Assembly: GCA_964651725.1 (NCBI GenBank)
Contig: CAZYYH010000001.1
Coordinates: forward strand, 2,868 to 66,867
Origin: an uncultured Halobacteriales archaeon
Lineage (GTDB): Archaea > Halobacteriota > Halobacteria > Halobacteriales > Halobacteriaceae
Length of the DNA stretch: 64,000 nt
Direction of reading: 5' to 3'
Below the pieces are notes generated by a model. The model had not been told where the DNA came from and did not search any database. It saw only the letters and a list, made by a program, of their open reading frames with translations. Shown here piece after piece: positions 5,903-54,028 of this stretch. Made by a program: the position numbers and the translations under genes. Numbering within the stretch: the first letter of the stretch is position 1; every line of letters begins with the position of its first letter.

Positions 5903-6097
5903 CTACGCCACCTCCTCAGCGAGCGCGCGACAGCCACACGGTTGGTAGGAGGCGTCGGCCGGGCCGCGCACCGTGATCGTGGCGACGGGCTGGCCGCAGC
6001 GCGGGCAGGAATCGAGCGAGGTGTCCGCGTGGTCGTCAAGCGATTCGTCGGCGGTCGTGCCGGGGGATTTATCCCCCGAAGCCGTGAACTCGGTCAT
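5903..6097 (-). CDS. small zinc-ribbon protein
   Basis: 64 aa with CPRCG...(19)...CGC. It is the first gene of the leftward integrase operon. Confidence 0.55.
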   Translation of the reverse strand: MTEFTASGDKSPGTTADESLDDHADTSLDSCPRCGQPVATITVRGPADASYQPCGCRALAEEVA

Positions 6098-6122
6098 GCT
6101 TCCGTACCCTGATTACGGAAGC
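6098..6122. promoter_or_regulatory. perfect 9-bp inverted repeat GCTTCCGTA/TACGGAAGC, with a third direct copy at 6199-6207
   Basis: gcttccgta-ccctgat-tacggaagc lies immediately upstream of the first gene of the integrase operon. GCTTCCGTA recurs at 6199-6207. Confidence 0.35.
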
Positions 6123-6331
6123 GAACCGCGGAGCCCGGTGCCACCACACCGGTCCGCTTTTCGTGCCGATTGGACCTGGCTAGCCAGGCCCGCGTATCGC
6201 TTCCGTAACTGCGAGGTCATCAACCCGTGATTATAAAGTTAATCACTAGAGAGTGACTATCCAATCATCTTTCAGTGATTTTTTGTTGGCGGGTCGGAAC
6301 GACTATAGCGTACTCGTTGTTTGCCACGGCT

Positions 6332-6595
6332 ATGCGACAGCCTGCGGATTGGATGACGCCGATGGATAATCGGATCCTTGAGGTGCTCCAATCCAGCGGG
6401 CTAGTGCTTTCCCCCTCCATTATCTCCTACAATCTCGACGTGAGTCGGGAAGCGGTGAATCGACGCTTGAAGGAACTCACTGCATACGGGATGGTGGAGA
6501 AGGTTGATCGGGGAAAGTACGAGATTTCAGAGGAGGGTCGAGCATACCTCGCAGGCGAGCTGGACGCTGATGATTTGGAGCGCGATGAGGAGTAG
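6332..6595 (+). CDS. phiH1-repressor-like winged-helix regulator
   Basis: Internal ATG. The sequence MRQPADWMTPMDNRILEVLQSSGLVLSPSIISYNLDVSREAVNRRLKELTAYGMVEKVDRGKYEISEEGRAYLAGELDADDL fits the haloviral PhiH1 repressor-like pattern (M.D.RILE...G.Y.it.eG..YL.Gelda). Confidence 0.7.
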   Translation: MRQPADWMTPMDNRILEVLQSSGLVLSPSIISYNLDVSREAVNRRLKELTAYGMVEKVDRGKYEISEEGRAYLAGELDADDLERDEE

Positions 6596-6667
6596 AGCAA
6601 TGTCATTCGCTTAGCCAACCGAATTCTATAATAATCAAGTGCTAGTAAACCCTAGATTGGTAGGGTC

Positions 6668-7033
6668 TTACTCCTTCTCTATGGGAACAGTATGAAAAAA
6701 CCACCTCAGCCCTATCTCAAAGGACAGAAGAAGGACGAACAAGCCAAGAATGAGAAATAGCGTAACCGATATTGAATATTCATCAACGGTAACTTCTGCG
6801 GCAAAACCCCCGCTAGCTCCCGCCACAATAAATCGCGCCGCTTGGGCAATCCCATCCTCCTGTTCCTCCGGAGGTAGGAAGGGAGCAAGGAGAAAAGTAA
6901 CCCCCAAAAGGAAAATGATAGTTGGTACGAATAATGTTGCCGGGGACTGGATACCAGCATACAATATATAAATGAAGATGGCGATAGACGCCAAGATTAA
7001 TCCTGGTCCCAGCGCTTTGGCGAAACCTCTCAT
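6668..7033 (-). CDS. small polytopic membrane protein
   Basis: 121 aa with about 4 hydrophobic helices. Convergent with 6332..6595. A hairpin acccta-gattgg-tagggt (6649-6666) lies between them. Confidence 0.6.
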   Translation of the reverse strand: MRGFAKALGPGLILASIAIFIYILYAGIQSPATLFVPTIIFLLGVTFLLAPFLPPEEQEDGIAQAARFIVAGASGGFAAEVTVDEYSISVTLFLILGLFVLLLSFEIGLRWFFHTVPIEKE

Positions 7034-7358
7034 GCTTCACCTGTACCTTCGTGAATCATTGAATTTTACTATGTTCGATGTTGCTTTGGATATCATGATG
7101 ACTGGTGTTGTAGATTTCCAGTATTACCCTCCCTTCAAATATTTTTTTATAATCAGAGAAGGGAGTAACCCTCGTAACTCACACTCAAACCTCTACCGCG
7201 TACTGCTCCTGATTTGCCCAATCAACCTATCCGAAAGAGTCGCCATCCTCACCCATTCCATCTCGCGCCGCTACCAAAACTATCAGTATCCACTCTCTGC
7301 TCACACAAGACTTAATTCATGACAATTCAGCCACTAACGCAGGAGACGCTCAAGAATC

Positions 7359-8876
7359 ATGCCGGGCATCCGTGATCGACTCTTCCATATCGTCTTCATC
7401 TGTGGAATAGTTCTGTTTGAACTCTTGCGCATATTCGAAGAGATCCTGAGAGATGCAGTCTCTAGTTCTATCGCCGCAGTTCTACTGGAACTCGCAGTCA
7501 ATATACCGGGTCCCATTAGCTCGATAGCCTGGATTGGAGCACAAGTGGCTCTACTATACGTTTTTAGCAATCTACTCAAATCTGTGTACTCGTCATTGCT
7601 ACCGCAAGTCCAAAGTGTTCGATTGTTCCAGACTGTTGGTGCAGTCGCCGCACTACAGGCCGCTCTTCTTACTGCAACCTACATGGGGAATCCACCACCA
7701 GTTCTGGAGTTCTTCTCCCTGCAAAAGCAGTACTTGATTCATACTTGGTACTGGAGATATCTCTATTTACCTCCCATTGCATTGTTCATCCTCGTTCTGA
7801 TTGCATCTCTGCTGAATAGCCAACTCAATACTGACGGTCCATTCTTTCAATACGGAGTGGCTGCCGCACTACCAGGGTTCGTTGGAATAGCTGTTGGTCT
7901 GCTTGCAGGCCTTGGTTGGCTACTGGTTGTCCCACTGGTGCTGTTGCTCGCTTTGAAGTTTGTGAATACATTGCGGCTTTCTTCATCTCCAAACGCGGAC
8001 TGGGAGAATTTCCTCGATCTTGAATGGCGGATCGGGAACCAGGTAAAGATGTTAGCTGATGGGATATCCGGTCTGGGCGTGGTTCTCTGCATTCTCGCAG
8101 GTATCTATATGACTGTGGAAGCATTCCAACTACGTCGAAGCTATGAATTGGTCATCTTCACAGGACTGCAGCTCAGGCAAACACCAATCGCAATCACTGA
8201 TGCAGTCCTCCGACTTTTTGCCCCGATTACATTAACAGCCTGTGGACTACTATTCTGGCTCTTTCAGGTCCCACGAGCACAATTCCGCTCTCAATCCGAG
8301 TCTATAGGAGAGAATGGAATTTCCACAGTTCCGATTATTCTACAGCCATTTCTAATTCTGGCAGCTCCGTTGTTTCTGCTAAAAGCAACTATATTGATCG
8401 GATCTCCTTTGAGGGATTCGATATGGCCTCTGTTCCAGATTCTGTTCCCGTTATCCGGAGCACTAGCGTTATTCTATGGTCTAAAACAGGCGAGAATCGG
8501 TGTTCGGAGAACTTTCCAAGAGAATATTGAATTGCCACTCCTAGCTCTCCCCATTGGATTGCTAATGCAACTTGGTTGGTCAACCTTTGGATCCTCCCCC
8601 TCCAGCCTTTTTACTCTCAACGTTTCTAACAGTGGGGCCCATCTTCTAATAGTAGCACTTGCAATTTTCGGACTCCACAATCTTCGGCCTAGGTTGCCAA
8701 GGCAGTCCGGAAATTCGCTCATCTGGTACGCTGTGATTGCAGTAGTGGCGGCTGGTTTAGCTTACCCCTCACTAGATGCAGCGCTAACTAGCCCCATTGC
8801 TGTTTTTGACTTCTATCTAATTGTATATCTAGTATCAGCAGGGACAGCAATTGCAGTAGCACATCTCCTTTCGTAA
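7359..8876 (+). CDS. large polytopic membrane protein (~12 TM), unknown family
   Basis: 505 aa, almost entirely hydrophobic helices with AT-rich codon usage. I recognise no motif. Confidence 0.75.
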   Translation: MPGIRDRLFHIVFICGIVLFELLRIFEEILRDAVSSSIAAVLLELAVNIPGPISSIAWIGAQVALLYVFSNLLKSVYSSLLPQVQSVRLFQTVGAVAALQAALLTATYMGNPPPVLEFFSLQKQYLIHTWYWRYLYLPPIALFILVLIASLLNSQLNTDGPFFQYGVAAALPGFVGIAVGLLAGLGWLLVVPLVLLLALKFVNTLRLSSSPNADWENFLDLEWRIGNQVKMLADGISGLGVVLCILAGIYMTVEAFQLRRSYELVIFTGLQLRQTPIAITDAVLRLFAPITLTACGLLFWLFQVPRAQFRSQSESIGENGISTVPIILQPFLILAAPLFLLKATILIGSPLRDSIWPLFQILFPLSGALALFYGLKQARIGVRRTFQENIELPLLALPIGLLMQLGWSTFGSSPSSLFTLNVSNSGAHLLIVALAIFGLHNLRPRLPRQSGNSLIWYAVIAVVAAGLAYPSLDAALTSPIAVFDFYLIVYLVSAGTAIAVAHLLS

Positions 8877-8989
8877 ATTCATGCTCGCAGGTTTCGCCCG
8901 CGTCCTGTGCCTCGCTGGCTTGAACAGTCTGCTCGCCCGCCCCGCCGTGCTTCATAACAGACCAGTTAATTCTTTATCTCCACAAATAT

Positions 8990-9805
8990 ATGGGGGATAT
9001 GGACTTGACTCGGGACAAATTCCAGGAGGCAGAGTTCTTCTTAGGCCAGATGCGAGAACACGTTGATGAGGATAGCTTCCGGTATCACATGAGCGCCTTC
9101 GTATCAGGGGCTCGGGCTGTGACAAATGTTTTTCAAAAAGAGTACAGGAGAAGCCAACATGAGGAGATATTCCAAGAGTGGTACGGTGGCATGAGTGGCG
9201 GGAACGGTTCGGACCCCCCAGAGCCCGGTACTATTCAAGATTACATGCGAAACGAGCCAATCTTCGTCTTCATGAATTCACTTCGGAATACTGTTCTGAA
9301 GGAGGGACTGCCGCTCACAACGGCAACTATGTTGACCGAAACAGACATATCTCCTACAGCAATCGAATTACTCGTAGACGAGGATTTTCCAGCACCTCAG
9401 GTGATCTTAGAGACAAAAGATGGTGTCGTTATAGGATCTTCTGTAGGTTACGCTTGGAAGATAGTGGAAGAGGAGAATCAAACACTCCTCTTAGCCATTG
9501 ACCAAGATGGGAATTGGTCTGCCATAATGGGATTCAATAATCTGGAATACGACCAATCGGAACTTCGTTGCCGATATAATTTCAGATACGGGGTTGATGA
9601 TGTGGATGATTTAAATGCCCTATTCTTTGCTGGTGAAGGTGAGGATCCGGAGAGTCTGAGGAGAGCGGATGAATCTTCCACAGATGTCAACACAGTCATT
9701 ACCCGGCTGTGTGAACGTTATCTACAAGAGATTAATTCTATATTGGGAGAATGGGAGCGGTATCTTGCTGACGAAACTGGACCAGATGAATTGACCGGTT
9801 TATGA
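8990..9805 (+). CDS. hypothetical acidic soluble protein
   Basis: 271-aa ORF directly downstream of the 505-aa membrane protein gene. Confidence 0.7.
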   Translation: MGDMDLTRDKFQEAEFFLGQMREHVDEDSFRYHMSAFVSGARAVTNVFQKEYRRSQHEEIFQEWYGGMSGGNGSDPPEPGTIQDYMRNEPIFVFMNSLRNTVLKEGLPLTTATMLTETDISPTAIELLVDEDFPAPQVILETKDGVVIGSSVGYAWKIVEEENQTLLLAIDQDGNWSAIMGFNNLEYDQSELRCRYNFRYGVDDVDDLNALFFAGEGEDPESLRRADESSTDVNTVITRLCERYLQEINSILGEWERYLADETGPDELTGL

Positions 9806-9837
9806 AGTACTGGTGGCTTCCTCCCATGACTCCTTTC

Positions 9838-9996
9838 TCACACCCTATCACACTCCTCGGTTAGATGCCGCGGATACTCACCTTTCACCACCTCATCTCC
9901 ACAGAAATCACACTCGCGGGTGTCGCCTTGGTACTGGTCCTCCCCAGCTCGATCTGCCTGCTTCCTCTTGTAGTAGTCGTTAGTCTCTTTCCTGCA
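9838..9996 (-). pseudogene. start-less copy of the small CCHC zinc-finger ORF
   Basis: The minus-strand frame ...GDTRECDFCGDEVVKGEYPRHLTEECDRV* has no ATG/GTG/TTG after the upstream in-frame stop. About 85% nt identity by eye to 15719-15800. Confidence 0.5.
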
Positions 9997-10217
9997 TCAT
10001 CGAACCAGCGCTGGCCGTGTACGGAGAACACATAGAGAGCCGCCTCCAATACCCGCTATACAGTAACGGAACTCGCGAGGACACCGGTTCCGAACCCCGC
10101 TCCGTGCGCCACGATGTTCAACAAGCACCACGGATTTAATCCGTAATCCAGTTGACGATGCGGTTGAACGCAATAGATTTATTATGCTGAATTGAGGTTC
10201 GTGCCAGTAAGGCAGGA

Positions 10218-11000
10218 ATGACCGAAGACCAGACTTGGGTTGACGAGGAGACTGAGTCATCATCGCCATCTTCGTCTGAGGGCTGGGTTCAGGACGTGGA
10301 GACTCTAGCCCATACTGACGAGCCTGTTGAGTCTCGCGAACTCGCTCTAGATTTTAGTAATCTTGAGGAAGTGGATATCGAGTTCCTTGATGGACAGACC
10401 GAGCGGACTCTTGATCGACACGCCGACGTCCAGGATGAGCACCGAAAACAAGCGAATTACATTCTAAGGGCTATGATAATTATCATCGGTGCAATCGGTA
10501 CGGTCACACCCTTTCTGGTGTCATTCTTCCAATCGCTTTCATTCGTCGAAATCGCAGTATGGCGAGGAGCAATGAGCTTGTGTTTCCTCCTCATCGCAGT
10601 GATGCTCAGTGAGTCGATTGCCATTGATATTCTCAGCATTGTTGATTCCGCATTTGACGTTCTCTCCCCAGAGAAAACAGAACGGGGCCTAATCGGGCGG
10701 CTTCTAACACTATTAGAAATCCTTGGCCCGGAAGCGGTTGATGAAGAATCAGGGGCAGGCGTCAGAAGTGTATCGATACTAGATGAGTTGGCAAAGGTCA
10801 TCGATAAACCTCACCGGGGTCTCCAGCCGGAAGTTCTTATGAACCGATTGAACAGGGTTCGTCGTAACGAGCGTGTGATCGACCAGAACAGTAAACATCT
10901 CCACGACACCTACGAGCGAGCGAAGCGTGGATTGGAAAAAATGGTCGGCATCCTAGTTCTCTTGACAGCCACCCTAATGCTTCTGGGGGCAGAAATATGA
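10218..11000 (+). CDS. membrane protein with acidic N-terminus
   Basis: 260 aa. An acidic ~75-aa head is followed by two or three TM helices (AMIIIIGAIGTVTPFLVSFF, AMSLCFLLIAVMLSESIAI), a helical region and a C-terminal TM helix. Confidence 0.7.
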   Translation: MTEDQTWVDEETESSSPSSSEGWVQDVETLAHTDEPVESRELALDFSNLEEVDIEFLDGQTERTLDRHADVQDEHRKQANYILRAMIIIIGAIGTVTPFLVSFFQSLSFVEIAVWRGAMSLCFLLIAVMLSESIAIDILSIVDSAFDVLSPEKTERGLIGRLLTLLEILGPEAVDEESGAGVRSVSILDELAKVIDKPHRGLQPEVLMNRLNRVRRNERVIDQNSKHLHDTYERAKRGLEKMVGILVLLTATLMLLGAEI

Positions 11001-11040
11001 CGATCAAACCTACAAATCCGGGTATGAGAGGTGTCCGTAA

Positions 11041-11307
11041 GTGACGAAAAAACAAACAAACCAAATGGAAAACGAGGATACTTCTCAGAGTAGACTGAGA
11101 GACAAAGTTGGTGAGTTCCTTGTCAGAGGCGTCTTTATCGTCGCAATTATAGGGATTTTATCTCCACTGTTTATCCAGTCCATATCGTCAATTACTAGCC
11201 CCCAATACGCTGAGGAGATTCCGATTATGCTCCTTGCAGTGCTATTTGCAGTCATATTACCACCGATTCGGTGGCTCTTCCGAGGTATTGTGCAGAAATT
11301 AGCGTGA
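11041..11307 (+). CDS. small two-TM protein
   Basis: 88 aa from a GTG start, with an alternative ATG at 11065. Contains two hydrophobic helices. Confidence 0.5.
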   Translation: MTKKQTNQMENEDTSQSRLRDKVGEFLVRGVFIVAIIGILSPLFIQSISSITSPQYAEEIPIMLLAVLFAVILPPIRWLFRGIVQKLA

Positions 11308-12216
11308 CTCGGCCTTTAGTTCGCGGAATGCCTCTGCGAAGGACTCGTTAACCCCTTCTGGGACATTTGATGCGATTTCTTTCCTTTGGAGATCTTCATA
11401 CGTATCCTCTAAGGAAACCCGGTACTTCTGCAGTTCAACCTCGTTCTCGGATTCCCAGCGCCCGAGCTGGCTCTCAATTGAATGATTGTTGTGTAGCATT
11501 CGGAGATGAACCTTGCTGAAGACCTCCCAAAACTCCTCAAGTTGGCTTTCTGCGTGTCGTATGTCCCCTTTTTCCAATAGGGTATACATGATTTGTGTCC
11601 ACTTGAGGAACTCAGGTTTCATTGTCGTATAGAGATCGGCGGGGTACTCCCGGAGCAGTTCCTCAAGCAAGTCAAGAAGTTTCTGCTTCTCAGATTCATC
11701 TTCAAAGGGGCTTTCATTAGAATCAGCGTTCTCAGCAAGTGCGTACACTTGCTTACGAAGCTCTTCAAACGATTGAATGAACTGATTGGGGGCGAAGTAT
11801 TTGTATTGTAGCTTCTTGATCTCCTCCACCTTCTTATTGGCGAAATTGCTTACAACAAATTCAATTGCCTCATCTATATCTCTTCTCGTCTCTTCCTCAA
11901 TTTCAAATGGTGTTTCAGGCTTTGCTGGTCGAACTTCCAATCCACCCCAATCAGCTTCGTCTAGTATGAACAGTGAGTTATCAAGCGGCTCTCGATTCCC
12001 AACTTCACCGTATCTATACCAGTATCTGGGGAATTCTATGTCGCGATCCAATTCGTCTTCGAGGTATCGATCGGCAATACAGGGAAGTTTTGAAAATTGT
12101 GTAGACGTCACTGATCGCCACTCCGGTTGTTCCTCTTGTAGTCTTGTTAAGAGACGATAGACTAGGTAGTTCCATTGCGCCTCCTGTTCTTCTGTAATCG
12201 GAGTGTGTGTAGTCAT
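11299..12216 (-). CDS. hypothetical acidic protein
   Basis: 305-aa ORF divergent from the 12608 operon. The N-terminal FSKLPCIADRYL...FPRYWYRYGEVG loosely mirrors the Panacea-like pattern of 12608..13117. This is weak. Confidence 0.7.
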   Translation of the reverse strand: MTTHTPITEEQEAQWNYLVYRLLTRLQEEQPEWRSVTSTQFSKLPCIADRYLEDELDRDIEFPRYWYRYGEVGNREPLDNSLFILDEADWGGLEVRPAKPETPFEIEEETRRDIDEAIEFVVSNFANKKVEEIKKLQYKYFAPNQFIQSFEELRKQVYALAENADSNESPFEDESEKQKLLDLLEELLREYPADLYTTMKPEFLKWTQIMYTLLEKGDIRHAESQLEEFWEVFSKVHLRMLHNNHSIESQLGRWESENEVELQKYRVSLEDTYEDLQRKEIASNVPEGVNESFAEAFRELKAESR

Positions 12217-12607
12217 TGGAACTGCTAGTTAGTAGTCGCAGACTCCGGCGAGTCCATTAATCTTTTCATGCTTCATTACCTCTTGAGTCGCCATTATATC
12301 GTCTAAAACGCTATTTGCGGGCGTGTCGAGAGATTTGCCGCCTATTCTCCGATTATTACAATCCATTGCAGCTGTTTACCTCCCTCACAAGATAGAGACC
12401 ACTCTTTAATAAGAAGTAGCCAACTGTAGAGTGAATGTGAAACTAAGAAGTAACCACTTTTCATTAGCAAATCCGCAGCACTCCGAATACAAAGCTTTGC
12501 GCTTGTGGTGTTACCACTGGAGGTGCCTTATACTAAAATTCAGAAATTCTATACAGAAACGTCAAGTACCTAGACCTAGAAGTCGGCGGCAGTGGTGACC
12601 AGAGGGA

Positions 12608-13117
12608 ATGCCGAAGATTGATGAAATCGACCGGCGGACGGATGTTGTCTTCATTGTTTTCCACTTCGCCGAAGAGATATCCGGGGTCACGAAGGTTCAG
12701 AAGCTTCTCTTCCTAATCGAGCAGGAGACCGAGTTCTTCCAGGAGTACGAGGAGAAGGTCGCGTTCAACTTTGCTCCCTACAAGATGGGGCCGTTCTCGG
12801 AGAACGTCTACCAAGAACTTCAATTCCTCCTCGAACTAGATGCTATCGAAGCTGAAAGATGGGATGACGGAACAGACATCGCTTCTACAGCTGATTTAGG
12901 GAACAAACGATTCACAATCACCCCGAAGGGACAGAAGATAGCTGCCCAGCTCGTCGAGGTTCTTGAACCAGAGCATGAAGAGGAGCTGCGAACCCTGGTC
13001 GAGCAGTACAATTCGATGTCGTTGGATGAGCTTCTGAAGTACGTCTACAGCGAGTATCCTGACTTCGCCTCCGAATCCGAGATCAAGGATGAAGTTTTCC
13101 AAGCGGGGGCTGACTAA
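12608..13117 (+). CDS. Panacea (DUF4065/SocA)-like antitoxin-type protein
   Basis: 169 aa. ISGVTKVQKLLFLIEQE...FNFAPYKMGPFSENVYQELQFL matches the remembered DUF4065 signature (KLqKLLy...f.aw.yGPv...vy). The stop overlaps the next start (TAATG, 13115-13119). Confidence 0.65.
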   Translation: MPKIDEIDRRTDVVFIVFHFAEEISGVTKVQKLLFLIEQETEFFQEYEEKVAFNFAPYKMGPFSENVYQELQFLLELDAIEAERWDDGTDIASTADLGNKRFTITPKGQKIAAQLVEVLEPEHEEELRTLVEQYNSMSLDELLKYVYSEYPDFASESEIKDEVFQAGAD

Positions 13118-13632
13118 TGGCGATTTCAGAAACCCTCTCGCACCAGTATATCGGGAGTATCTCCCACCAGTACACTGAGCGCTGGATTGAGACTGCCAAA
13201 GGGGACAACAAGCAGTATGTCCCAGAGAAGTACCAGCTCGGAGTGGTCACTGATTTCCTCAAGCAGAAGGGCATCTCCTTTTCGACCGAACACCGAATCT
13301 ACTGCTACCCAATCGACATCGTTGGTGTACAACGTAACACAACCATCGCAATTGAACTGAAGTCGAAGGATTTCAAGCGAGGAATCGAGCAAGCGCGTCG
13401 AAACGCGGCCTTCGTAGACTACTCGTTCCTCTCTGTCTGGAGTTCCAATATCACGCCGAACCTCCATTCCCGTGTCGAAGGGCTGGATATCGGGTTAATT
13501 GGGGTCAATTCGGGGGTCAAATTCCTGTCCGCTCCTTCAAAGACCCCCAAACAATTATATGCGAAAGATAGAATTATCGAATCGGTAGAAGCCCATGTTC
13601 GAAACGACGCTACGGTACAAGAATCTGAATAA
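13117..13632 (+). CDS. PD-(D/E)xK (Hjc-like) nuclease-fold protein
   Basis: 171 aa. EKYQLGVVTDFLKQKGISF...YPIDIVGVQRNTTIAIELKSKD gives the E...D...ExK arrangement of restriction-endonuclease-like/Hjc folds. Confidence 0.6.
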   Translation: MAISETLSHQYIGSISHQYTERWIETAKGDNKQYVPEKYQLGVVTDFLKQKGISFSTEHRIYCYPIDIVGVQRNTTIAIELKSKDFKRGIEQARRNAAFVDYSFLSVWSSNITPNLHSRVEGLDIGLIGVNSGVKFLSAPSKTPKQLYAKDRIIESVEAHVRNDATVQESE

Positions 13633-14857
13633 TAAGGACTCAGTCGAGACCCAGACTCAGCACTACGATTCTCTCCTGATTCAAGCCCATATGCTAGCAT
13701 ATGGGAGCAAGCAGATTCCCTTGAATATCAGCAACCTTGTCGAGGAGCACGGGGTTGAATATTACATCGACCCGATGATCTCTGATTTCCGAGTTGGAAA
13801 TGACTTCAGATCGAACGGGGGATTACGTGGTTGGCATTCAAAATACGTTGATGTCCTTGGTGATCCTCTACAGCGAATTCTAAAGGAAAACGCGAATGTG
13901 AATGCGAGACACGTCTCTGACTCTGACTTGCGGAAGATCTCGCAATCAGTGGTTCAGTTCCAGGAGGATTTCATTCCTACGCAGGTCGAGGAGGAAGCTG
14001 GTCGATACGACTCGGTCAATACCGAATCGTTGCAACCGAAAGCTGTGATTCCGTGGTCTCACAAAATCCAAAATAAGCGGGATATCCAGGCAAACCGCGA
14101 TATCATTGAGTACTCCCAAGAACAAGCAGAAAACTCGCTAAAGCCGTGTCTATTCGTCACTCCTGGATTCATACAGCGTCCAGGCAACAGAGCAGAGCTG
14201 ATTAAGCTACTATCGAACTTCGACGTTTCGCAGTGCTTTTTGTGGATTGAAGGGCTTGACAAGCACGAAACCCTAGAAAGCGTCTATAAGAATGCAGTGG
14301 ATTTAGTGTATGACCTATCTGAGAGCCGGATTGACCCCCATTTCTACTATGGTGATCACTTCTCGAATCTCCTCTCGTACTTTGGTTTGTCAGGGACTGC
14401 GTATGGCACGCTGTATTCCGAGGAGCGGTCTGAACAGCGTGAAAAAGCAGGGGAAGGCGGAGTTCAACAACGATTCTACGTTGAGCCACTCCGAGATTTC
14501 CTGAAAGTGACGGCAGCGGTTGACTTGATGGTGGACACAACGACCCCGATGTGTGGTTGTAAATACTGCTCCCGGCACTTCGATAGTTGGAATGAACTCC
14601 TACTTCGCCTCCAATCCGACGACGACGATGATGTTCTCTTACCAATTCTTCAGAAGCACGCCGTAGCTATGAAGTGGAGGAACGCTCGCTATGTCGAAGA
14701 ACACGATATTGACGAAGCGATTGAGAATCTGGAAGATACCTTCAAGAAGTACGTCTCTGCATATCGGAATTCCCCTCTGATAAGTCCACGAAAGTCCCCG
14801 AACTACTTAGCTAGTTGGAAGCATGTTCTGGAAGTCAAGAAGGACGAGTTTCTATAG
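13595..14857 (+). CDS. hypothetical protein with TGT-like CxCxxC...H zinc signature
   Basis: 420 aa, or 388 aa from the ATG at 13691. PMCGCKYCSRHF...LLPILQKH gives CxCxxC plus a His 30 residues later. Size is in the range of tRNA-guanine transglycosylase/DpdA enzymes. I could not locate the catalytic Asp motifs confidently. Confidence 0.7.
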   Translation: MFETTLRYKNLNNKDSVETQTQHYDSLLIQAHMLAYGSKQIPLNISNLVEEHGVEYYIDPMISDFRVGNDFRSNGGLRGWHSKYVDVLGDPLQRILKENANVNARHVSDSDLRKISQSVVQFQEDFIPTQVEEEAGRYDSVNTESLQPKAVIPWSHKIQNKRDIQANRDIIEYSQEQAENSLKPCLFVTPGFIQRPGNRAELIKLLSNFDVSQCFLWIEGLDKHETLESVYKNAVDLVYDLSESRIDPHFYYGDHFSNLLSYFGLSGTAYGTLYSEERSEQREKAGEGGVQQRFYVEPLRDFLKVTAAVDLMVDTTTPMCGCKYCSRHFDSWNELLLRLQSDDDDDVLLPILQKHAVAMKWRNARYVEEHDIDEAIENLEDTFKKYVSAYRNSPLISPRKSPNYLASWKHVLEVKKDEFL

Positions 14858-15026
14858 TTCGTAGCGTCAGTCGAGAATCTATTTCGCGCCCTTCAGGACG
14901 CTGACGCACCCTCGTGGACACGCGTGACCGGATTTCTGGTTGTCGAGCTGCTTGAGGAAGGGGTCACAGTCGGGACGGGAGAGAACTGTAACCTTTTAGT
15001 CAGCCTGGCGGAATTTGGAGACCGTC

Positions 15027-15659
15027 ATGGCCCAGGTTGAAACACTTGCTATTATCATTCCTCTACTGTTCGTGCTATTAGTTCAACTTATCGGGACAGT
15101 AAGGCAGTGCCCAATCAAAACTCATGTCCCGAATAAGAATTTGCTCAAGACGATTGATTACGGTCGAATGCCTTTTAGAGGACTGGCGGTCTCGGTTGCT
15201 GAAATACTTCCGACCTTGGGCCGATGGACAACAGGAATGGGCCGATTCGGGCTCCTACATATGCTCACTTCGTATTATGTCGGGGTAGTAGTTGCCGTTC
15301 TATATTATCTTTCCTGGAGTGAAGGGAATTTCCTGATCGTTCCAAGTTTAGCTATGGGGGTGTTCTGGATTCTCCTTCCGCTGTTCACTGTTGAGGAGTA
15401 TGATGAGATTGTGAATGAAGACATCAAACCCAGATCCATCGATTATCATACTATGATGGCAATCGGAGCGATATTGCTCATTTACGCAATTGTATCGGCA
15501 TCAAGGACTGTCGCAACATACGAGAATGTCGTGCTACTGGTCGGATTCATGATTATGAACTGGTATCACTACTATCTCTCAGGACTATATGAGGAGATGT
15601 TAGCAAGGGAAGTTGACTATGTACGCAACGGTGGGATATACGAGTCAAAAATGGAATAG
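15027..15659 (+). CDS. polytopic membrane protein
   Basis: ATG at 15027, whereas the track starts at a TTG at 15015. About 6 hydrophobic helices. Confidence 0.7.
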   Translation: MAQVETLAIIIPLLFVLLVQLIGTVRQCPIKTHVPNKNLLKTIDYGRMPFRGLAVSVAEILPTLGRWTTGMGRFGLLHMLTSYYVGVVVAVLYYLSWSEGNFLIVPSLAMGVFWILLPLFTVEEYDEIVNEDIKPRSIDYHTMMAIGAILLIYAIVSASRTVATYENVVLLVGFMIMNWYHYYLSGLYEEMLAREVDYVRNGGIYESKME

Positions 15660-15718
15660 CGAGGACTCTATCTGTCTCTTAATCAGAGTTCGGGGTCTAC
15701 TTGATTGTATTATATCCC

Positions 15719-15988
15719 TCAAACCCCATTACACTCCTCGGTCAGATGCCGCGGATACTCGCTTTTCACCACCTCGTCCCCACAGAAATCACATGCCCGC
15801 GTCTCGCCCTCGTACTGTTCCTCATCGGTTCGTTCTGCCTGCTCACTGTCGTCATTTCGGGCTGGTACTGAAAACCGGGTGGAGGGGTTCCACCGGCTGG
15901 CGTGACAGTGTGAGTGACGCGGCGTCGGCACTTGTTGCACCGGTGCACGTCGATGGTTCGTGCTCGCGCACGGTCGATTCGTCCGCAA
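15719..15988 (-). CDS. small CCHC zinc-finger protein (start uncertain)
   Basis: The C-terminus ACDFCGDEVVKSEYPRHLTEECNGV is CxxC-x12-H-x4-C. The N-terminal half lies in a high-GC patch and looks poorly coding, so this may also be a remnant. Confidence 0.4.
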   Translation of the reverse strand: MRTNRPCASTNHRRAPVQQVPTPRHSHCHASRWNPSTRFSVPARNDDSEQAERTDEEQYEGETRACDFCGDEVVKSEYPRHLTEECNGV

Positions 15989-16146
15989 CCATGGTATAGA
16001 TTGCCGTGGTATTGAGTAGCACGATTGCGGCGAGTATCGCCGTACAATGTTAGAATCGCTGCACGACGCTCAATCATCGAAACCGGATAGTGCCGTCATG
16101 AGCCACCCGATTAAGGACCACTCTGCCCTGGACTGTACGTCCCTAT

Positions 16147-16521
16147 CTAGTAGCTCCACGCCGACTGCTCGTCCTCCATCTCCAGCACCCACTCGTACTC
16201 AGAACGCACCCAGTCCACATTGTCCCGATGCGCATCGAGCCACGCGGCTGGATTGCTCGCGCGCTCCCACAGCACCTCGGTCTCCCCGAAGCCGTGCGCG
16301 TCGAACGCTTCCGCGATGACCTGGTGCTCCACCGAATCGTACATGACCACGCGCTCGCCGCCGTTGATGAGCGCGACGATCTCTGCCTCCAGGTCGCGTC
16401 GGAGCAGCAGCTCGGCGAGCTTGTCGGTGTGGACGCCTCGGCGCAACCGGGACAGCGCGCGGTAGAACGCCTCGAAGAGCTCCTGTCGGTCCTCCCTCGA
16501 GGGGTGGCTCTCTGTCGCCAT
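16147..16521 (-). CDS. hypothetical acidic protein (high-GC patch)
   Basis: 124 aa from the ATG at 16521. Its typical haloarchaeal codon usage contrasts with the surrounding island. Confidence 0.6.
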   Translation of the reverse strand: MATESHPSREDRQELFEAFYRALSRLRRGVHTDKLAELLLRRDLEAEIVALINGGERVVMYDSVEHQVIAEAFDAHGFGETEVLWERASNPAAWLDAHRDNVDWVRSEYEWVLEMEDEQSAWSY

Positions 16522-16711
16522 CACACGTAGGGGGTTGAGAGACGGGTAGAAAGGACTGAGCCACGGGTGGAGAGCGGAACTGAAAGTAAACTGGCCGAAT
16601 CAGTCCTTCCTCTCGACCTACGTGTGCAGCTCCTCTACCTGACAGCCACTTCCACTACTTGCGTGAGATGAATGCACTCAAGTTCCAGCCCGCTTTACTA
16701 ACTACATATCC

Positions 16712-17434
16712 ATGCCCACGTTTCGATTGGCACAAATATGTGGCAAAGGGCATCTCCTCTATATCGCAGATAGTCTGGATGATCTGGCGAGCGATAACCA
16801 GTGCTACAAATGCGGGAGCCAGATTTTCTCTCAGTGTCCTGAGTGTGAAGCCCCTGTCCGAGTCCGTGGCGTCTCCTCGGATGACGGGTCCATTAGCTGG
16901 AATCGCGAGAACCACTGCTACAACTGTGGTGTAGGGCTACCGTGGAAACCCTCTCAGTTCCAGCAGATGTTGAACGCACTTGGCACAAGCCATAGTCCTT
17001 CTCCCAGCGGGGTCATCCTACCACAGTCTACCCGCAAACACCTAGAGGAGACGAAATACGGACACGAAGTGATTAGCCACATTCAAGAGGGTGATCGGTG
17101 TTATTCGCACAGTCTCTGGCAGCCAGCTCTCGGGTCATATATTCATGCGTTCGAATGGGCAGCGATTACCTATCTCGAAGACGTCGAAGACGTGGATATT
17201 ATCGCCTACGAGCGCGAGGGGAACTTCTATACCTTCGCCAAGGGTGGGCAGAATATTCTTGACGAACTCCAACAGTACGTCGACCTGGATCAGAAGACCG
17301 TCTCGAGTATCAAACGGATGAATCGCGCTGAACGGCGCTGGATGGCTCACCACAAGTCGGGCGAGACGCTTCCCGATGAAGTGGACGCGGTCCGGTCCCG
17401 ACTCGGAACGTTACTCAAGACACTCTTCGAATAG
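16712..17434 (+). CDS. double zinc-ribbon protein with HEPN/DUF4145-like C-terminal domain
   Basis: The N-terminus has CGKGH...CYKCG...CPECE...CYNCG. The C-terminus SIKRMNRAERRWMAHHKSG contains Rx4H (RRWMAH), preceded by a helical region (SYIHAFEWAAITYLE). Confidence 0.65.
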   Translation: MPTFRLAQICGKGHLLYIADSLDDLASDNQCYKCGSQIFSQCPECEAPVRVRGVSSDDGSISWNRENHCYNCGVGLPWKPSQFQQMLNALGTSHSPSPSGVILPQSTRKHLEETKYGHEVISHIQEGDRCYSHSLWQPALGSYIHAFEWAAITYLEDVEDVDIIAYEREGNFYTFAKGGQNILDELQQYVDLDQKTVSSIKRMNRAERRWMAHHKSGETLPDEVDAVRSRLGTLLKTLFE

Positions 17435-17485
17435 AGACCACTGATACCCACGATTAATACGTCTAAGAGTCTTAATCGTGATTAT

Positions 17486-20400
17486 CTATGATTCTTGCTC
17501 TTGTAATCCTTGTTCTATAACGTTCTGGTCCTCTGTCGTTAACCCATACAGGAAACAAATAGCTTCGTTGATTACAACTTCAGTCGTTGCAATCTTCCGT
17601 TCAAGATCGGCCTCTCGATCAGCCTCCTTCACGTACTGTCTGAACCCGGTTTCAATAGCGGATAACTCGGGTAGTTCCAGACCCCTGAGGCGGTCGATTA
17701 CCGAATTCTGTGTCGTCGTATGGGGAAGGAATCCGGCATACGTTTTCGACTTAGATTGTTCCAACACGACCGGCAAGTACTCCTCAAGCAATCGCACTTC
17801 TAACTCGGAGGGATTCCGAAAGCGGTAGACCGGAATCGTCTCTACTTGACTCGAGCCATCGCTTTCTACGAGTACATTCAGGCGCACCCCGTCATGATCT
17901 TCCTCGATTTCAAAGTCTGCAACCGTATATTGGGGATTGGACCCTTTCTCAGTCACCACTGTATGCTCTAATCCCGCAACAGGTTGAGCTACTTCTTCGA
18001 GCGTTCCTGCAGGCTCAAACGGTTCAATGTAACTGAGCAGATCGGTATTTAGTCTAGCCTTCTCAGCATACCACTCCCCTAAGTTCTGCGCAAAGTCGCC
18101 GACAGCATCATGAATCGCAGCCCGCTGCCCTGCCCGTGCAGCACCCCGTAGTTCATACTCAATCCGCTGCATCTCCCTGTTGTCCACTGCGTGTTCATAC
18201 GCAGTCAAGATAGCCCGATGAACCGCGTCTCTTCGTTCACCAACCTCATGAAAATCGATGAGTGGGATTGGTAACCGACGCGCGTCACTTACCTGAATCC
18301 GGGGAAACGAGCCAGTCACGAAGCTCGAAATGATCTTGTTCGATATCCGCGGGAAAATCCATGACATCACTTCCGAATTGAGCACTGCCAAGATGAAGTG
18401 GGTGCTGTAGTTTGAATGCGTGGTGATGCCGAGAACGGACTTATCGAAACAATATTCGGATTCGGTGTATGCAGCATTCAGCATATCTCTACTCTCGTTC
18501 GTAATCTCTTGAAGCAGAATTCGCGGGCCACTACAAAGGTGACGAGGAATCGGATCGTGAAGATGGTCTCCAACCTTTAGGTACTCGGCCCCGGCTGGAT
18601 CAAGATGGTACCGCTCGACATGCCGCCCCTTGATTTCTAAGAAGTGATTGTCGCTCTCCTTGGTTTCACTATGGAAGTCACGGGTTTTCCTGGTCTCTTC
18701 ATCGTGTTTCGATTTATTGTACACTTGGATTCCGATTCTAACCTCCGCTACGCGGGGCTCCAATTCGACGCTGACATCCCGTATCTTATCGAGAATTCGC
18801 TGCTCTGCAGGTGTTCGTCGAATTTCAATCCGATAATCCTCATTCTCTAAGAGTGCGTCCTGGTCCGTACTGCGGACCTTCTCTAACATGGGGACGTCGT
18901 TCTCAGAGTTATCAGCCATATACGCATTAACGACACCAGGCTCCTCCGATTTCTCTGCCATGAGAATGATGGTATCTACGTCCACACCTTCGAACACTCG
19001 CTCCTCAAACCGAATAATCGATCGTAGCCAAGAATTTGACAACACAAATTCTCTCAAACCCTCAGCATTTGGCTGAGTTAACCACTGCTGCGGAATAATA
19101 TATCCGAATTGGCCGTTCTCCTGAAGGAGGGATAAGCCCTTCTCGATAAATAACGCAAACATGTCGATGAAGTACTCTGCTGTGTCACGATACTTGGCTT
19201 CGAAGTAGTCCGTAAGGTCGTCGTCAACACTTCCATAGGGAGGATTCCCAAGGACAACATCGAATCCTCCTGGACTTCCGAGCTCATCCTCAGCGTCACC
19301 GTAGAACACCTGTGGGAATTCCAAGTACCAGTGGAAAAATCTGTATTTGTCGTCGAGTGATATGGCGTCCTGATACCAGGACTCCGATGTCACTGATTCC
19401 CACTGCTCGTCATCTTCAATTACTCGCGCCAGGTTCTCAATCTGTCCCGACCCGATATCCACGCCTAACGCCTTCGCTGTATGTACATCACAGATTGATA
19501 AAATACGCTGATAGGTCTCGTCCCGCGTTATCTCCTGATACTTTGTCTCCATCTTTTTCACATCGGCCCGTGCTTCCATCTCAATGTCGAGTAACTCACG
19601 GAAAATCTCAATAACGTGTTCAACTGCTTCTTTGTGACTTGTCCCCCAGCTCGCCCAAGAGGATTGTTCGTCATCCGTTTCAATGGGGAGCTCGTCGATT
19701 TCCTCTAAGTTCGAGCCTACAAGGGAGTTCCCACACTTCAGATGGTGATCTAGAAATGCTAGCGGCCGCTCCGCTGCAAGTGTGTTCAGCCACAAGGAGA
19801 CCTTTGCTAATTCGACGGCCATGGGTTGGACGTCAATCCCATAGATACAGCGCTGCGCAACACGCCGACGAACCCACTCGCTATCCATGTTCTCAGAGAG
19901 GGATTCAACACCGACGTCATCGACTTGCTGCTCTCTCGCCTCAAGGATTTCTGCTGCCAGATAATCCACAACTCCTGTTAAGAAATGGCCGCTTCCCATC
20001 GCAGGATCGAGAATACTGAGATCGAACACTCGTTGCATAAATCGGTCCGCATACTCTTCTGGTGGCGCCTCGTTTCGAACGTCCTCTTTGATATCTTCGA
20101 GAACAGGATCCAGAGAGTCCTCGACGATGTATTTCACCACGTATTCTGGAGTGTAATAGGAACCGAACTCCTTGCGTTCGTTCCCTGCAGGCTTGTACGA
20201 CCGAATGACCGCTTCTTCCCGTCCCGTGGTCTTGAGGTAGACCTCTCCTGGCCGGATGGTCGTCTGCTCTTCGATATTTCCCTCAAAGTCCGATTGCGGA
20301 ACCCATTGTTCTCGTTCCCCGTCATCGATTGCTACTAACGGCTCGGTGGCAACACCTAAATCATACTCGAGTAAGCCTTCATAGATGCTACCAAGGTGAC

Positions 20401-21670
20401 GGACTGTGAGCGACGAATAATCCGCATATTGATGCTCGCCTGCAGTCTGAACATCTGTCTGAGAGATTAGTCGAATAACCTCTGCGAGATAAGAATCGGC
20501 AACCCTGTTATCCTGGAGGAATCGTGATTCAGACCGATCGTGCTTTGACGGATTGGTCCTGAACAGGCCGCCATTGTAGCCTGGAATATGAAAATCAGTT
20601 TCAGGGATGTTATAGTTGTCACTACCCTTGTCGATGAGTCGGAAAAGCCGGTCAAGTTTCTCCCAGAGTCCGAACTCGTAGTCTCTATACTTTGGATAGT
20701 CCTTTTCTAACTCCTCACATATCGTAATCTTCTGTTGATTGAGGCTGTAGTCTCGCTCGTATTTCTTACTGTCGATTGGGAGTAAAGAACGCTCTTCGCT
20801 CTCCGCATAAAGGATGAATATTAACCGATACAAATAGACTAGCGAGGCATCGTGGATGTAATCGATATCGTCTGCATCAAGATTGTTTTCGTCGTTATGT
20901 AAGAACCCTTGGGCTAAGACCTTCAGAGCATCGTAGATGCGGTCTTGAATATCTTCACCTAGTTCCCGCGAGAACCGTGCGCTTTGTTGATAGACACGAT
21001 CAAGGAAGCACTCTCCCTGCACATCAGGGCAGAACGCTTGCCTCCGGAAGAGAACGTAAAATACGGTAAATGCTCTCAAGTCGCCCGACTTGAGGATTGT
21101 GGGCAAATCCACCTCAAAAAACGAATTCAGCTTATGACTGGTTGGCGCATAGTAGAGCCGCCACTTCCTCCCGTTTGTTACGATTCCCCAATCCGGCGGC
21201 GTCTCCTGCAAGTAGTATGAAATTTGGTAATTCGGGTTCCCGAAGTCACGTTGATCATTGTTCTCAACGTCAAGGTCTCTATCCCAATGTTTGGCATCTG
21301 CAATCCCAATCGCATTTTTGTATACATCCTCGCCTTCCTGTTTGCGCACTACAGCTTTTTGACGTTCACTATCCGACCCAAAAAGCGCATAGTCCGGTGT
21401 CCGCCGATTGCGATGAACTGCCTGCTGGACTTCCCAATGGTGATTTAATACTTGTAGTACAGGGCGGATGAATCGCTCTTCCAACGGCATTTCGTTCCGC
21501 TCTACTAGTTCCGGCATCTCCTCTTCAAACAGATTTGCAATGCTGTTGAACGCCGCGTCGACTGTGGACTGTTCGAGGTCCTTCCATTCCTGCGTGTTCT
21601 CTAAGCGGTTTTCAATATAATGAGGCGAGAACAGGTTTTGGGTCTTCCAAGCCGTTAGAGAGGTTTGCAT
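17486..21670 (-). CDS. type IIG restriction-modification enzyme (fused PD-(D/E)xK nuclease, N6-adenine MTase and target recognition domain)
   Basis: The N-terminus TPDYALF...IGIADAKHWDRDLD is a PD...DxK nuclease motif. ILDPAMGSGHFL is SAM motif I and VLGNPPYG is NPPY motif IV. The C-terminal ~500 aa forms the target recognition region. I chose the start at MQTSLTAWKTQNLFSPHYIENRL. Alternative starts are 21742 (ATG) and 21775 (TTG). Confidence 0.9.
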   Translation of the reverse strand: MQTSLTAWKTQNLFSPHYIENRLENTQEWKDLEQSTVDAAFNSIANLFEEEMPELVERNEMPLEERFIRPVLQVLNHHWEVQQAVHRNRRTPDYALFGSDSERQKAVVRKQEGEDVYKNAIGIADAKHWDRDLDVENNDQRDFGNPNYQISYYLQETPPDWGIVTNGRKWRLYYAPTSHKLNSFFEVDLPTILKSGDLRAFTVFYVLFRRQAFCPDVQGECFLDRVYQQSARFSRELGEDIQDRIYDALKVLAQGFLHNDENNLDADDIDYIHDASLVYLYRLIFILYAESEERSLLPIDSKKYERDYSLNQQKITICEELEKDYPKYRDYEFGLWEKLDRLFRLIDKGSDNYNIPETDFHIPGYNGGLFRTNPSKHDRSESRFLQDNRVADSYLAEVIRLISQTDVQTAGEHQYADYSSLTVRHLGSIYEGLLEYDLGVATEPLVAIDDGEREQWVPQSDFEGNIEEQTTIRPGEVYLKTTGREEAVIRSYKPAGNERKEFGSYYTPEYVVKYIVEDSLDPVLEDIKEDVRNEAPPEEYADRFMQRVFDLSILDPAMGSGHFLTGVVDYLAAEILEAREQQVDDVGVESLSENMDSEWVRRRVAQRCIYGIDVQPMAVELAKVSLWLNTLAAERPLAFLDHHLKCGNSLVGSNLEEIDELPIETDDEQSSWASWGTSHKEAVEHVIEIFRELLDIEMEARADVKKMETKYQEITRDETYQRILSICDVHTAKALGVDIGSGQIENLARVIEDDEQWESVTSESWYQDAISLDDKYRFFHWYLEFPQVFYGDAEDELGSPGGFDVVLGNPPYGSVDDDLTDYFEAKYRDTAEYFIDMFALFIEKGLSLLQENGQFGYIIPQQWLTQPNAEGLREFVLSNSWLRSIIRFEERVFEGVDVDTIILMAEKSEEPGVVNAYMADNSENDVPMLEKVRSTDQDALLENEDYRIEIRRTPAEQRILDKIRDVSVELEPRVAEVRIGIQVYNKSKHDEETRKTRDFHSETKESDNHFLEIKGRHVERYHLDPAGAEYLKVGDHLHDPIPRHLCSGPRILLQEITNESRDMLNAAYTESEYCFDKSVLGITTHSNYSTHFILAVLNSEVMSWIFPRISNKIISSFVTGSFPRIQVSDARRLPIPLIDFHEVGERRDAVHRAILTAYEHAVDNREMQRIEYELRGAARAGQRAAIHDAVGDFAQNLGEWYAEKARLNTDLLSYIEPFEPAGTLEEVAQPVAGLEHTVVTEKGSNPQYTVADFEIEEDHDGVRLNVLVESDGSSQVETIPVYRFRNPSELEVRLLEEYLPVVLEQSKSKTYAGFLPHTTTQNSVIDRLRGLELPELSAIETGFRQYVKEADREADLERKIATTEVVINEAICFLYGLTTEDQNVIEQGLQEQES

Positions 21671-22021
21671 ATTCCCCCATGAAAACGAAGACAAATGAAC
21701 GTTTCTACGAACCCAGTGAAGCACATAAAAGACCTCGCTCATGAGAACTTCGGCCAATTTGGACGAGCCTGCCAACTATGTTGCTCAATGACTGTCAACC
21801 CATCCCCTCTTTAATTAGTCCAGAAGTTAGTTCTCATCCCTGTTCAAGTCCTCGTTGTATGCCAATTCACCTTCGGCTGGTCTATGCAGAAGAGCAGATG
21901 GCGTCCGAGACTCCTGACTTCTTACTGATCGCTGCGCGCAGCCTCCCAATCGGACCTGCCCCAGAATTCCCGTACGTCAGAGCGACCCTCAGAAATCAGT
22001 GTGGGTTGACCGATCTAATTC

Positions 22022-22741: not shown

Positions 22742-22872
22742 GGTTTGGCCCACCTGACAGCAGTATTTAAACTGTAGACGTTATTGCCAGGGTGGGCGGA
22801 AACGGTCGGTTCTGACCCAGGCAAAGGGACTTCAGGATGAACCCCCCAATTTGTGATATATTTTAGACGGCG

Positions 22873-22899
22873 TGCTGAATAGAGGGCGCGTATACAGTA
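22873..22899 (+). repeat. 27-bp imperfect palindrome, copy A
   Basis: TGCTGAAT-AGAGGGCGCGT-ATACAGTA, 130 bp upstream of the serine recombinase start. Confidence 0.7.
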
Positions 22900-23004
22900 C
22901 CCGCGTTTCTATCGATGGGAATCCCGGGCGACACCTACCGGGACCAATGTGACAGGACTGCCAGTTCCGTTTCTGGGATTTGGGATCGGCCAGTCAATCC
23001 AGAA

Positions 23005-38643: not shown

Positions 38644-38723
38644 GGTCCGGTTTTATTAGGCATATAGATAAGGGCATTCTCCGTAAAAATTCTGCTGGTC
38701 CTGCATCCATGACATAAATGGCG

Positions 38724-38750
38724 TGCTGTATACAGAGGGTAGATTCAGCG
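38724..38750 (+). repeat. 27-bp imperfect palindrome, copy D
   Basis: TGCTGTAT-ACAGAGGGTAGA-TTCAGCG, between the two divergent HEPN genes. Confidence 0.75.
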
Positions 38751-38850
38751 ATTAGTTCTGAAACATGTGGATAGCCTTTCCTGCACTCGGCAGGGCTGTA
38801 TAGCCTTCCGTCCGGATTAGGTTTATTTATCTGGATTTCAAGAAGCCACT

Positions 38851-51922: not shown

Positions 51923-54028
<2,106 letters not shown>

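Follow-up and report, generated by a model that had tools for sequence, protein, structure and literature searches.

A Panacea gene and a predicted nuclease gene of an uncultured haloarchaeon open a conserved three-gene mobile cassette that ends in a TGT-fold gene

Does a Panacea-like gene coupled to a small nuclease gene in an archaeal genome make up a complete toxin-antitoxin pair, or does it belong to something larger? The question is raised by a 64,000-nucleotide (nt) stretch of DNA from an uncultured Halobacteriales archaeon (NCBI GenBank assembly GCA_964651725.1, contig CAZYYH010000001.1), here called the window, in which an initial annotation had described two translationally coupled open reading frames (ORFs) as a candidate PanA/PanT-type or defence pair within a provirus. 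We find that the flagged pair opens a conserved mobile cassette of three genes, g1-g2-g3, whose products are a Panacea protein (g1), a predicted PD-(D/E)xK-fold nuclease (g2) and a predicted barrel protein of the tRNA-guanine transglycosylase (TGT) fold (g3; Table 1). Both annotated ORFs lie where they had been placed, on the forward strand, and the quoted peptides are present in them (TKVQKLLFLIEQE and FAPYKMGPFSENVYQEL in g1; EKYQ, PIDIVGV and IAIELK in g2). The TAATG junction is likewise as described, with an overlap of one base at 13117 between the TAA stop of g1 (13115-13117) and the ATG of g2 (13117-13119; gctgacTAATGgcg). These are real genes rather than chance ORFs, because homologues of g2 fall into 34 protein clusters (E = 1e-31 to 1e-49; all haloarchaeal or metagenomic) and both ORFs recur side by side in every related locus that was fetched. 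For the third gene there are 40 clusters of homologues (E = 1e-86 to 1e-149), all of which start with MFET[TI][LV]RY.

To define the unit, we used 28 loci (~20 non-redundant), which were collected by looking up homologues of g2 and g3, by running pattern scans on genomes and metagenomes and by searching plasmids. In every locus with enough upstream DNA, g1-like, g2-like and g3-like ORFs lie on one strand and in the same order. The g1-g2 junction is the tightest of the operon, varying elsewhere from a 4-nt overlap to a gap of ~9 nt, and g2 and g3 overlap by 26-77 nt, most often 38, in 17 of 17 haloarchaeal loci measured. Pairwise-identity matrices of g1, g2 and g3 across 16 loci are correlated at r = 0.89-0.94, with none of 2,000 permutations as high, indicating that the three genes diverge together as a unit. 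The two genes of the initial annotation are tightly coupled and syntenic throughout the related loci, but the unit comprises three genes and not two, because g3, which had been missed, is always present, overlaps g2 and co-diverges with both g1 and g2.

Carriers of the cassette include Haloferax gibbonsii and Haloarcula marismortui ATCC 43049, where it resides on plasmid pNG400 (g1, WP_049938427.1; g2, WP_011222234.1; g3, WP_011222233.1). Its distribution is sporadic, with matches to 3 of 185,579 species-representative genomes in a pattern scan. The flanking genes differ from locus to locus and include Type I and Type IIG restriction-modification genes, an SRA-HNH nuclease, DNA methylases, integrases, ParA and insertion sequence (IS) elements, and the local guanine-plus-cytosine (GC) content of 0.46-0.58 is under typical haloarchaeal values. 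The three genes travel together among the plasmids and genomic islands of haloarchaea.

The same association extends to much more distant relatives. A profile search of 1.84 billion representative proteins returned 563 g3-like clusters at E < 1e-3 and 308 at E < 1e-10 (counted at 50% identity), one of which comes from a bacterial metagenome-assembled genome of the FCB group. Four remote contexts were readable, with g3 only ~20% identical, and all of them have a g1-like Panacea gene and a g2-like nuclease gene (129-142 amino acids (aa)) 5' of g3; some of these remote relatives are bacterial. In the contexts with DNA, our own hidden Markov models (HMMs) matched g1 at E = 1e-24 to 1e-27 and g2 at E = 1e-16 to 1e-18. 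One extra gene is found between g1 and g2 in each, encoding a PIN-domain protein in locus L014 and predicted membrane-helix proteins in loci L017 and L018, and the fourth context follows the same gene-size pattern. Junctions between g2 and g3 in these operons are overlaps of 1-4 nt or a 4-nt gap. Natural fusions also tie the three genes together: g1 and g2 are joined in one ORF directly 5' of g3 in locus L016, and a 560-aa protein, P0207, combines a g2-like N-terminal domain with a g3-like body. Separately, the representative library contains a 520-aa g3-like protein, P0142, in which profile positions 56-386 correspond to residues 141-502, so that the first ~55 profile positions are missing; its N-terminal extension of ~140 residues includes a hydrophobic, membrane-like segment and may represent a fusion with the type of membrane protein that is inserted as a fourth gene in remote operons.

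Judged by profile matches, g1 carries a Panacea domain, as the initial annotation had suggested. The match to Pfam PF13274 (SocA_Panacea) covers residues 30-149 and model positions 1-109 of 113 and is marginal, at 26.7 bits over a gathering cut-off of 25.7 (E = 1.1e-5). We nevertheless assign the domain because a PADLOC model (PDC-M19A, 9.2e-18), a PHROG model (phrog_14939, 1.1e-17) and the RefSeq annotation of the pNG400 homologue WP_049938427.1 (SocA domain-containing) agree. A GPV-type signature motif is reported to be critical for neutralization by Panacea proteins (PMC8832971); the GP[VF] signature of g1 reads GPF, MGPFS is invariant in nine haloarchaeal g1 sequences, and remote g1-like proteins have GPW, GPF or GPY at this position. 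Experiments have established Panacea proteins as direct-binding antitoxins that neutralize many unrelated toxins, and a sensory role that does not require dissociation has been suggested for them (PMC8832971, PMC10440598). Kurata et al. recognized a partner by a co-directional position no more than 100 nt away and by conservation in two or more species (PMC8832971); across ~17 haloarchaeal loci, g2 lies 3' of g1 and well inside that distance. The Natrononativus locus (L010) holds a second, divergent Panacea-like ORF (8925-9374, reverse strand; g1 HMM, 1.7e-15), adjoining an SRA-HNH nuclease and a Type I restriction-modification system.

For g2, an alignment of 33 sequences bears out the E...D...ExK layout, with E37, D67, E80, K82, Q92 and R95 invariant, and D...ExK...Q is retained in remote relatives (L14_129, L17_138 and L18_133) whose g3 is just ~20% identical. 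A Foldseek search of the Protein Data Bank (PDB) with the AlphaFold2 model (predicted local distance difference test (pLDDT) score, 81) placed 3dnx at the top (E = 8.7e-8; template modelling (TM) score, 0.60/0.70), a structure treated as PD-(D/E)xK (PMC3045609). SfsA, PaqCI, NucS, XisH, AF1548, Hjc and Can2 followed, and the list includes 1xmx, 2vld and 3fov. Hjc chains reach TM scores of 0.26-0.33 (E = 0.02-0.1), far below 3dnx. The predicted fold and the motif mark g2 as a generic PD-(D/E)xK nuclease, so the nuclease part of the initial annotation stands and its Hjc-like part does not. We rejected an Hjc identity on the grounds of its poor structural rank, the lack of a Pfam Hjc match and the sporadic occurrence of g2 on islands and plasmids. 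Scans of Pfam, NCBIfam, PADLOC and PHROG returned no meaningful family for g2 or for g3. Its tail, DVRxDxPxQ (residues 160-171; window 13600-13632), is disordered in the model (pLDDT < 50) and absent from several homologues, and it probably looks conserved because g3 start codons overlap there, rather than through a function in g2.

The third gene yields a confident AlphaFold2 model (pLDDT, 91; predicted TM score, 0.90), and its three best Foldseek matches in the PDB are all TGTs (E = 4e-5 to 2e-4; TM score, 0.50-0.61): mouse QTRT1/2 (9hn7, E = 3.7e-5), 7owz and the Zymomonas TGT (3bll, TM score 0.52/0.61). Generic triosephosphate isomerase (TIM) barrels rank after these, at TM scores of ~0.3. 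The zinc-site motif CxCxxC...H (residues in Table 1) is kept in 70-74 of 74 family members, and the g3 family profile aligns it to the zinc motif of the archaeal enzyme arcTGT (1iq8), although at E = 0.85 this alignment is not significant alone; two g3 homologues are named 'tRNA-guanine(15) transglycosylase-like domain-containing' in UniRef. Also conserved are D59 (70 of 74), E276 (60 of 74), Q123, R/K293 and Y295. In the model D59, R/K293 and Y295 sit at the C-terminal ends of barrel strands and E276 in a loop just after one, a placement of acidic and polar residues that suggests an active enzyme.

By sequence, g3 is neither a canonical TGT nor a member of DUF6610, the DpdA4 family of haloviruses. 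The 39- and 74-member sets of the g3 family have no Pfam match, including to PF01702 (TGT) and PF20314 (DpdA4), and TIGR00432 matches 1 of 74 members, weakly (9.7e-4). PDB sequence and profile searches with g2 and with alignments A1, A2 and A3 found nothing significant beyond the sub-threshold arcTGT zinc-motif alignment. A Foldseek comparison of g3 with viral structures (BFVD) gave weak matches only, among them a phage queuine tRNA-ribosyltransferase at E = 0.064.

The immediate setting of the cassette is a low-GC island (GC content 0.48-0.50, compared with ~0.70 in most of the remaining sequence) that contains a Type IIG restriction-modification enzyme. The initial annotation had placed the genes in an archaeal provirus. 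None of the eight neighbouring ORFs scanned gave an informative phage or viral PHROG or Pfam family, tblastn searches of 50,697 phage records with g1, g3 and one large neighbouring ORF gave no match, and a scan of IMG/VR found no relative. As no viral hallmark genes or matches were found in these searches, the provirus claim is unsupported, and we describe the setting instead as a low-GC island that holds a Type IIG enzyme along with a serine recombinase.

Further features of the window and of the cassette are collected in Table 1. In most of 16 haloarchaeal loci, compared by eye, a GRAAAC-N2-3-TCAAG motif occurs ~36-41 nt 5' of the g1 start, with equivalents in the divergent loci L003, L011, L013 and L019-L024; it is a candidate promoter or operator element of the operon. 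An Rfam scan of 9.5-16.6 kb found no match. For the soil metagenome study from which the window derives, three sequencing runs were located, all of library type 'other' and with no RNA-seq among them. The Type IIG gene lies 2.6 kb downstream of the cassette, and the island ends near the gene for the serine recombinase or resolvase; most island ORFs are without a family match. Two copies of an imperfect direct repeat (81% identity, 5,881 nt apart) bracket the cassette and four other ORFs, and on the reverse strand each copy codes for the C terminus of a small zinc-finger-like protein (...CDFCGDEVVK[GS]EYPRHLTEEC...). The repeat may have been left behind when an element inserted at the 3' end of a small gene. 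Elsewhere in the window, a second short low-GC patch beside a tRNA gene, flanked by ORFs of 437 and 440 aa without Pfam matches, may be another insertion. The high-GC part includes an ordinary archaeal core gene, which confirms the archaeal host background.

Table 1 Features of the g1-g2-g3 cassette and its surroundings (positions are those of the window)
Feature	Position	Strand	Description
Upstream motif	12555..12566	+	AGAAACGTCAAG; consensus GRAAAC-N2-3-TCAAG; 41 nt before g1 ATG
g1	12608..13117	+	169 aa; Panacea (SocA/DUF4065) domain; predicted antitoxin or sensor subunit
g2	13117..13632	+	171 aa; predicted PD-(D/E)xK-fold nuclease; candidate catalytic residues E37, D67, E80, K82, plus Q92
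g3	13595..14857	+	420 aa; predicted TGT-fold (beta/alpha)8 barrel; C-terminal zinc site C320, C322, C325, H355
g2/g3 overlap	13595..13632	+	38 nt, out of frame; 3' end of g2 over 5' end of g3
Low-GC island	~6000-23000		Contains the cassette
Direct repeat	9837-9971 and 15718-15852		135 nt
DUF2321 gene	16712-17434	+	240 aa; N-terminal DUF2321/double zinc ribbon (Pfam 9.5e-12; phrog_16447 4.7e-9); between cassette and restriction-modification gene
Type IIG gene	17486-21775	-	1,429-aa restriction-modification enzyme; MmeI_N, MmeI_Mtase, Eco57I, N6_Mtase and TaqI_C domains
Recombinase gene	22022-22753	-	Serine recombinase/resolvase
Second low-GC patch	38001-40000		GC content 0.48
tRNA-Ser	40875-40948		Beside second low-GC patch
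AAA ATPase gene	51923-54028	+	CDC48/VCP-type double AAA ATPase

What might the cassette do? We read g2 and g3 as a two-enzyme, nucleic-acid-damaging effector under the control of g1, the three together forming a tripartite toxin-antitoxin-like module for abortive defence or addiction, and we put the probability of this reading at roughly 45%. The product of g3 would act on the N-glycosidic bond of a guanine-type base, breaking or exchanging it, and that of g2 would cut the nucleic-acid backbone, while g1 would bind the effector, chiefly via g2, and block it until the block was lifted by a trigger, for example infection by a virus or loss of the element. The analysis shows the gene anatomy, the folds, the conserved active-site-like residues, the strict three-gene synteny, the co-divergence and the fusions; we infer that the proteins form a physical complex, that the effector is toxic and is neutralized by g1, what chemistry g3 performs on which substrate, and what the trigger is. 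A Panacea partner accompanies the effector throughout, as would be expected if the effector can harm the cell that carries it. The PIN RNase or membrane-protein additions of the remote operons are of kinds typical of toxins or abortive effectors, which lends the effector model support, and further support comes from the loci that adjoin restriction-modification genes, integrases, ParA and IS elements.

Several observations weigh against a tripartite effector. The relationship of g3 to the TGTs comes down to the modelled fold and the zinc motif: hhalign of the g3 family alignment A3 with Escherichia coli Tgt (query 100% identical to PDB 10fa/10fb) recovered only CxCxxC, at 1.4% probability. D254 lies in a YGDxF motif that resembles GIDMF of Tgt and, by our own comparison of the motifs rather than a computed alignment, would match the position of the TGT nucleophile Asp; the Asp is confined to the haloarchaeal clade, and most remote relatives have Gly or Ser instead, so the chemistry of g3 may differ from base exchange. 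Both g2 and g3 fall outside all Pfam, NCBIfam and PADLOC models, leaving no functional anchor. The L016 and P0207 fusions were each seen once, in a metagenome assembly, and the island location suggests a defence role but is not proof of one. We found no published toxicity or neutralization test of the g1-g2-g3 family in the literature.

The simplest rival is a plain two-gene PanA/PanT system in which g2 alone is the toxin, g1 its antitoxin and g3 a dispensable accessory. The tightness of the g1-g2 junction and the g1-g2 fusion of L016 fit it, as does the haloarchaeal A|T group pT91/T71 of Kurata et al., which joins PanA to a hypothetical protein (HHpred matches, VC1899, EndoMS and RPA0323), and the same survey notes accessory third genes beside some PanAT pairs (PMC8832971). 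However, such third genes were present in only a small fraction of the surveyed genomes, whereas g3 is found in every locus here, where it overlaps g2, co-diverges with g1 and g2 and, in P0207, is fused to a g2-like domain; in the remote operons, moreover, it is a PIN or membrane-protein gene and not g2 that adjoins the Panacea gene. On balance we regard the two-gene system as unlikely. The idea that the locus is mere housekeeping, with paralogues of an Hjc-type resolvase and a tRNA transglycosylase adjacent by chance, draws on the presence of both folds in core archaeal enzymes, but is hard to reconcile with the sporadic occurrence on plasmids and low-GC islands (3 of 185,579 species-representative genomes), the poor structural match to Hjc, the lack of TGT and Hjc Pfam matches or the constant linkage to a Panacea gene, and its probability is close to nil.

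Two further alternatives take the fold of g3 as their starting point. Haloarchaea make preQ0 for archaeosine, and g3 might, like DpdA, mark host DNA with a 7-deazaguanine drawn from the archaeosine/queuosine precursor pool, with g2 cutting unmarked DNA and g1 delaying or restraining g2 in the manner of a restriction-modification system. DpdA enzymes of the TGT superfamily insert preQ0 into DNA (PMC10164549, PMC10516641), the P0207 fusion resembles the union of nuclease and modification enzyme in one Type IIG chain, and restriction-modification systems are often among the neighbours. Yet g3 matches neither PF01702 nor PF20314 and has no phage tblastn match, the flanks contain no DpdB-like ATPase or preQ0 genes (a radical-SAM gene near the pNG400 cassette, checked as QueE, had no NCBIfam match), and Asp at the nucleophile position is not family-wide; a strictly conserved antitoxin would also be redundant if modification already protected the host. 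We consider this base-exchange scheme distinctly unlikely. The other possibility starts from the ability of the TGT fold to bind 7-deazaguanines: g3 would recognize or excise such bases in viral DNA, g2 would cleave there and g1 would control both. It is ecologically attractive, given that preQ1 occupies 30% of the G positions of halovirus HVTV-1 and that DpdA4 occurs in several archaeal viruses including HF2 (PMC10516641), and the coupling to a nuclease and the defence-island context would fit. The argument is nonetheless purely inferential, relatives of the cassette also occur in bacteria and in low-GC organisms with viruses of unknown modifications, and attack on foreign modified DNA alone would not obviously need an antitoxin, which makes restriction of this kind very unlikely in our judgement.

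A bolder extension, which we hold to be improbable, is that g3 represents a new, DNA-acting branch of the TGT superfamily that writes a 7-deazaguanine-type mark on host DNA or erases one from virus DNA and that, with g2 and the g1 switch, forms a previously unknown base-exchange or base-excision immunity system, present in haloarchaea and, in a four-gene form, in other archaea and in bacteria. If g3 does act on guanine or 7-deazaguanine in DNA, this would amount to a new chemistry of nucleic-acid immunity or addiction and would bear on the arms race with haloviruses whose DNA contains deazaguanine. Irrespective of its chemistry, the g3 family of 563 clusters is unannotated in Pfam, NCBIfam and PADLOC and is linked to a small nuclease and a Panacea protein wherever its context is readable. 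Panacea antitoxins pair with many toxins, and we found no described system in which one is linked to a TGT-fold enzyme. Tractable carriers, H. marismortui ATCC 43049 (pNG400) and H. gibbonsii, make direct testing possible.

In relation to known systems, the cassette resembles PanA/PanT (PMC8832971, PMC10440598), in which the Panacea gene likewise comes first, is tightly coupled to the next gene and is conserved across species; it differs in having three obligate genes and in a partner that consists of a predicted nuclease plus a predicted TGT-fold enzyme. Parts of it have been catalogued before: in Dataset S1 of Kurata et al. the pNG400 g1 homologue WP_049938427.1 appears among the PanA proteins, without an assigned toxin, and group pT91/T71 of that dataset, from Halomarina oriensis and Natrinema gari, pairs PanA with a nuclease-fold hypothetical protein as its putative toxin (PMC8832971). 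A Panacea protein beside a nuclease fold in haloarchaea was thus already on record as a putative pair, which weakens the novelty that the initial annotation saw in its pairing. Neither the obligate TGT-fold third gene nor the deep conservation of the triad nor the fusions turned up in searches of Pfam, NCBIfam, PADLOC and the literature. The pT91/T71 pairs resemble the cassette in being haloarchaeal, in their antitoxin-then-toxin order and in their overlapping genes, and their HHpred list mirrors the Foldseek list of g2 (1xmx, 2vld and 3fov), a comparison of match lists and not of sequences. In contrast to the cassette, they have overlaps of -26 and -29 nt and no recorded third gene, and the T71 accessions do not overlap those of the g2 clusters.

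Outside the Panacea systems, DarTG is a toxin-antitoxin system that defends against phage and whose toxin chemically alters DNA bases. It is linked to the cassette by the C-terminal region of DarG, which weakly matches g1 (NCBIfam, 1.3e-3; PADLOC, 8.7e-5), whereas the cassette is without a macrodomain or ADP-ribosyltransferase and would instead use a TGT-fold barrel as the base-directed enzyme together with a separate nuclease. DpdA of the Dpd system, and DpdA4 (DUF6610) of haloarchaeal viruses, share with g3 a TGT-superfamily fold that has a CxCxxC...H zinc site, and a setting among defence or mobile genes; g3 departs from them in lacking PF01702, PF20314 and phage matches, nearby DpdB/DpdC or preQ0 genes and family-wide conservation of the candidate nucleophile Asp. 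Hjc and g2 have in common a minimal PD-(D/E)xK fold, a similar size and the E...D...ExK layout, but Hjc is a core gene and, as described above, is distant from the sporadic, mobile g2 in both structural and Pfam terms. The fusions, finally, recall known architectures by analogy only, their domains being unrelated: the single antitoxin-toxin chain of L016 is reminiscent of CapRel, a fused toxin-antitoxin sensor (PMC10440598), and the nuclease-modifier chain of P0207 of the Type IIG nuclease-modification fusions.

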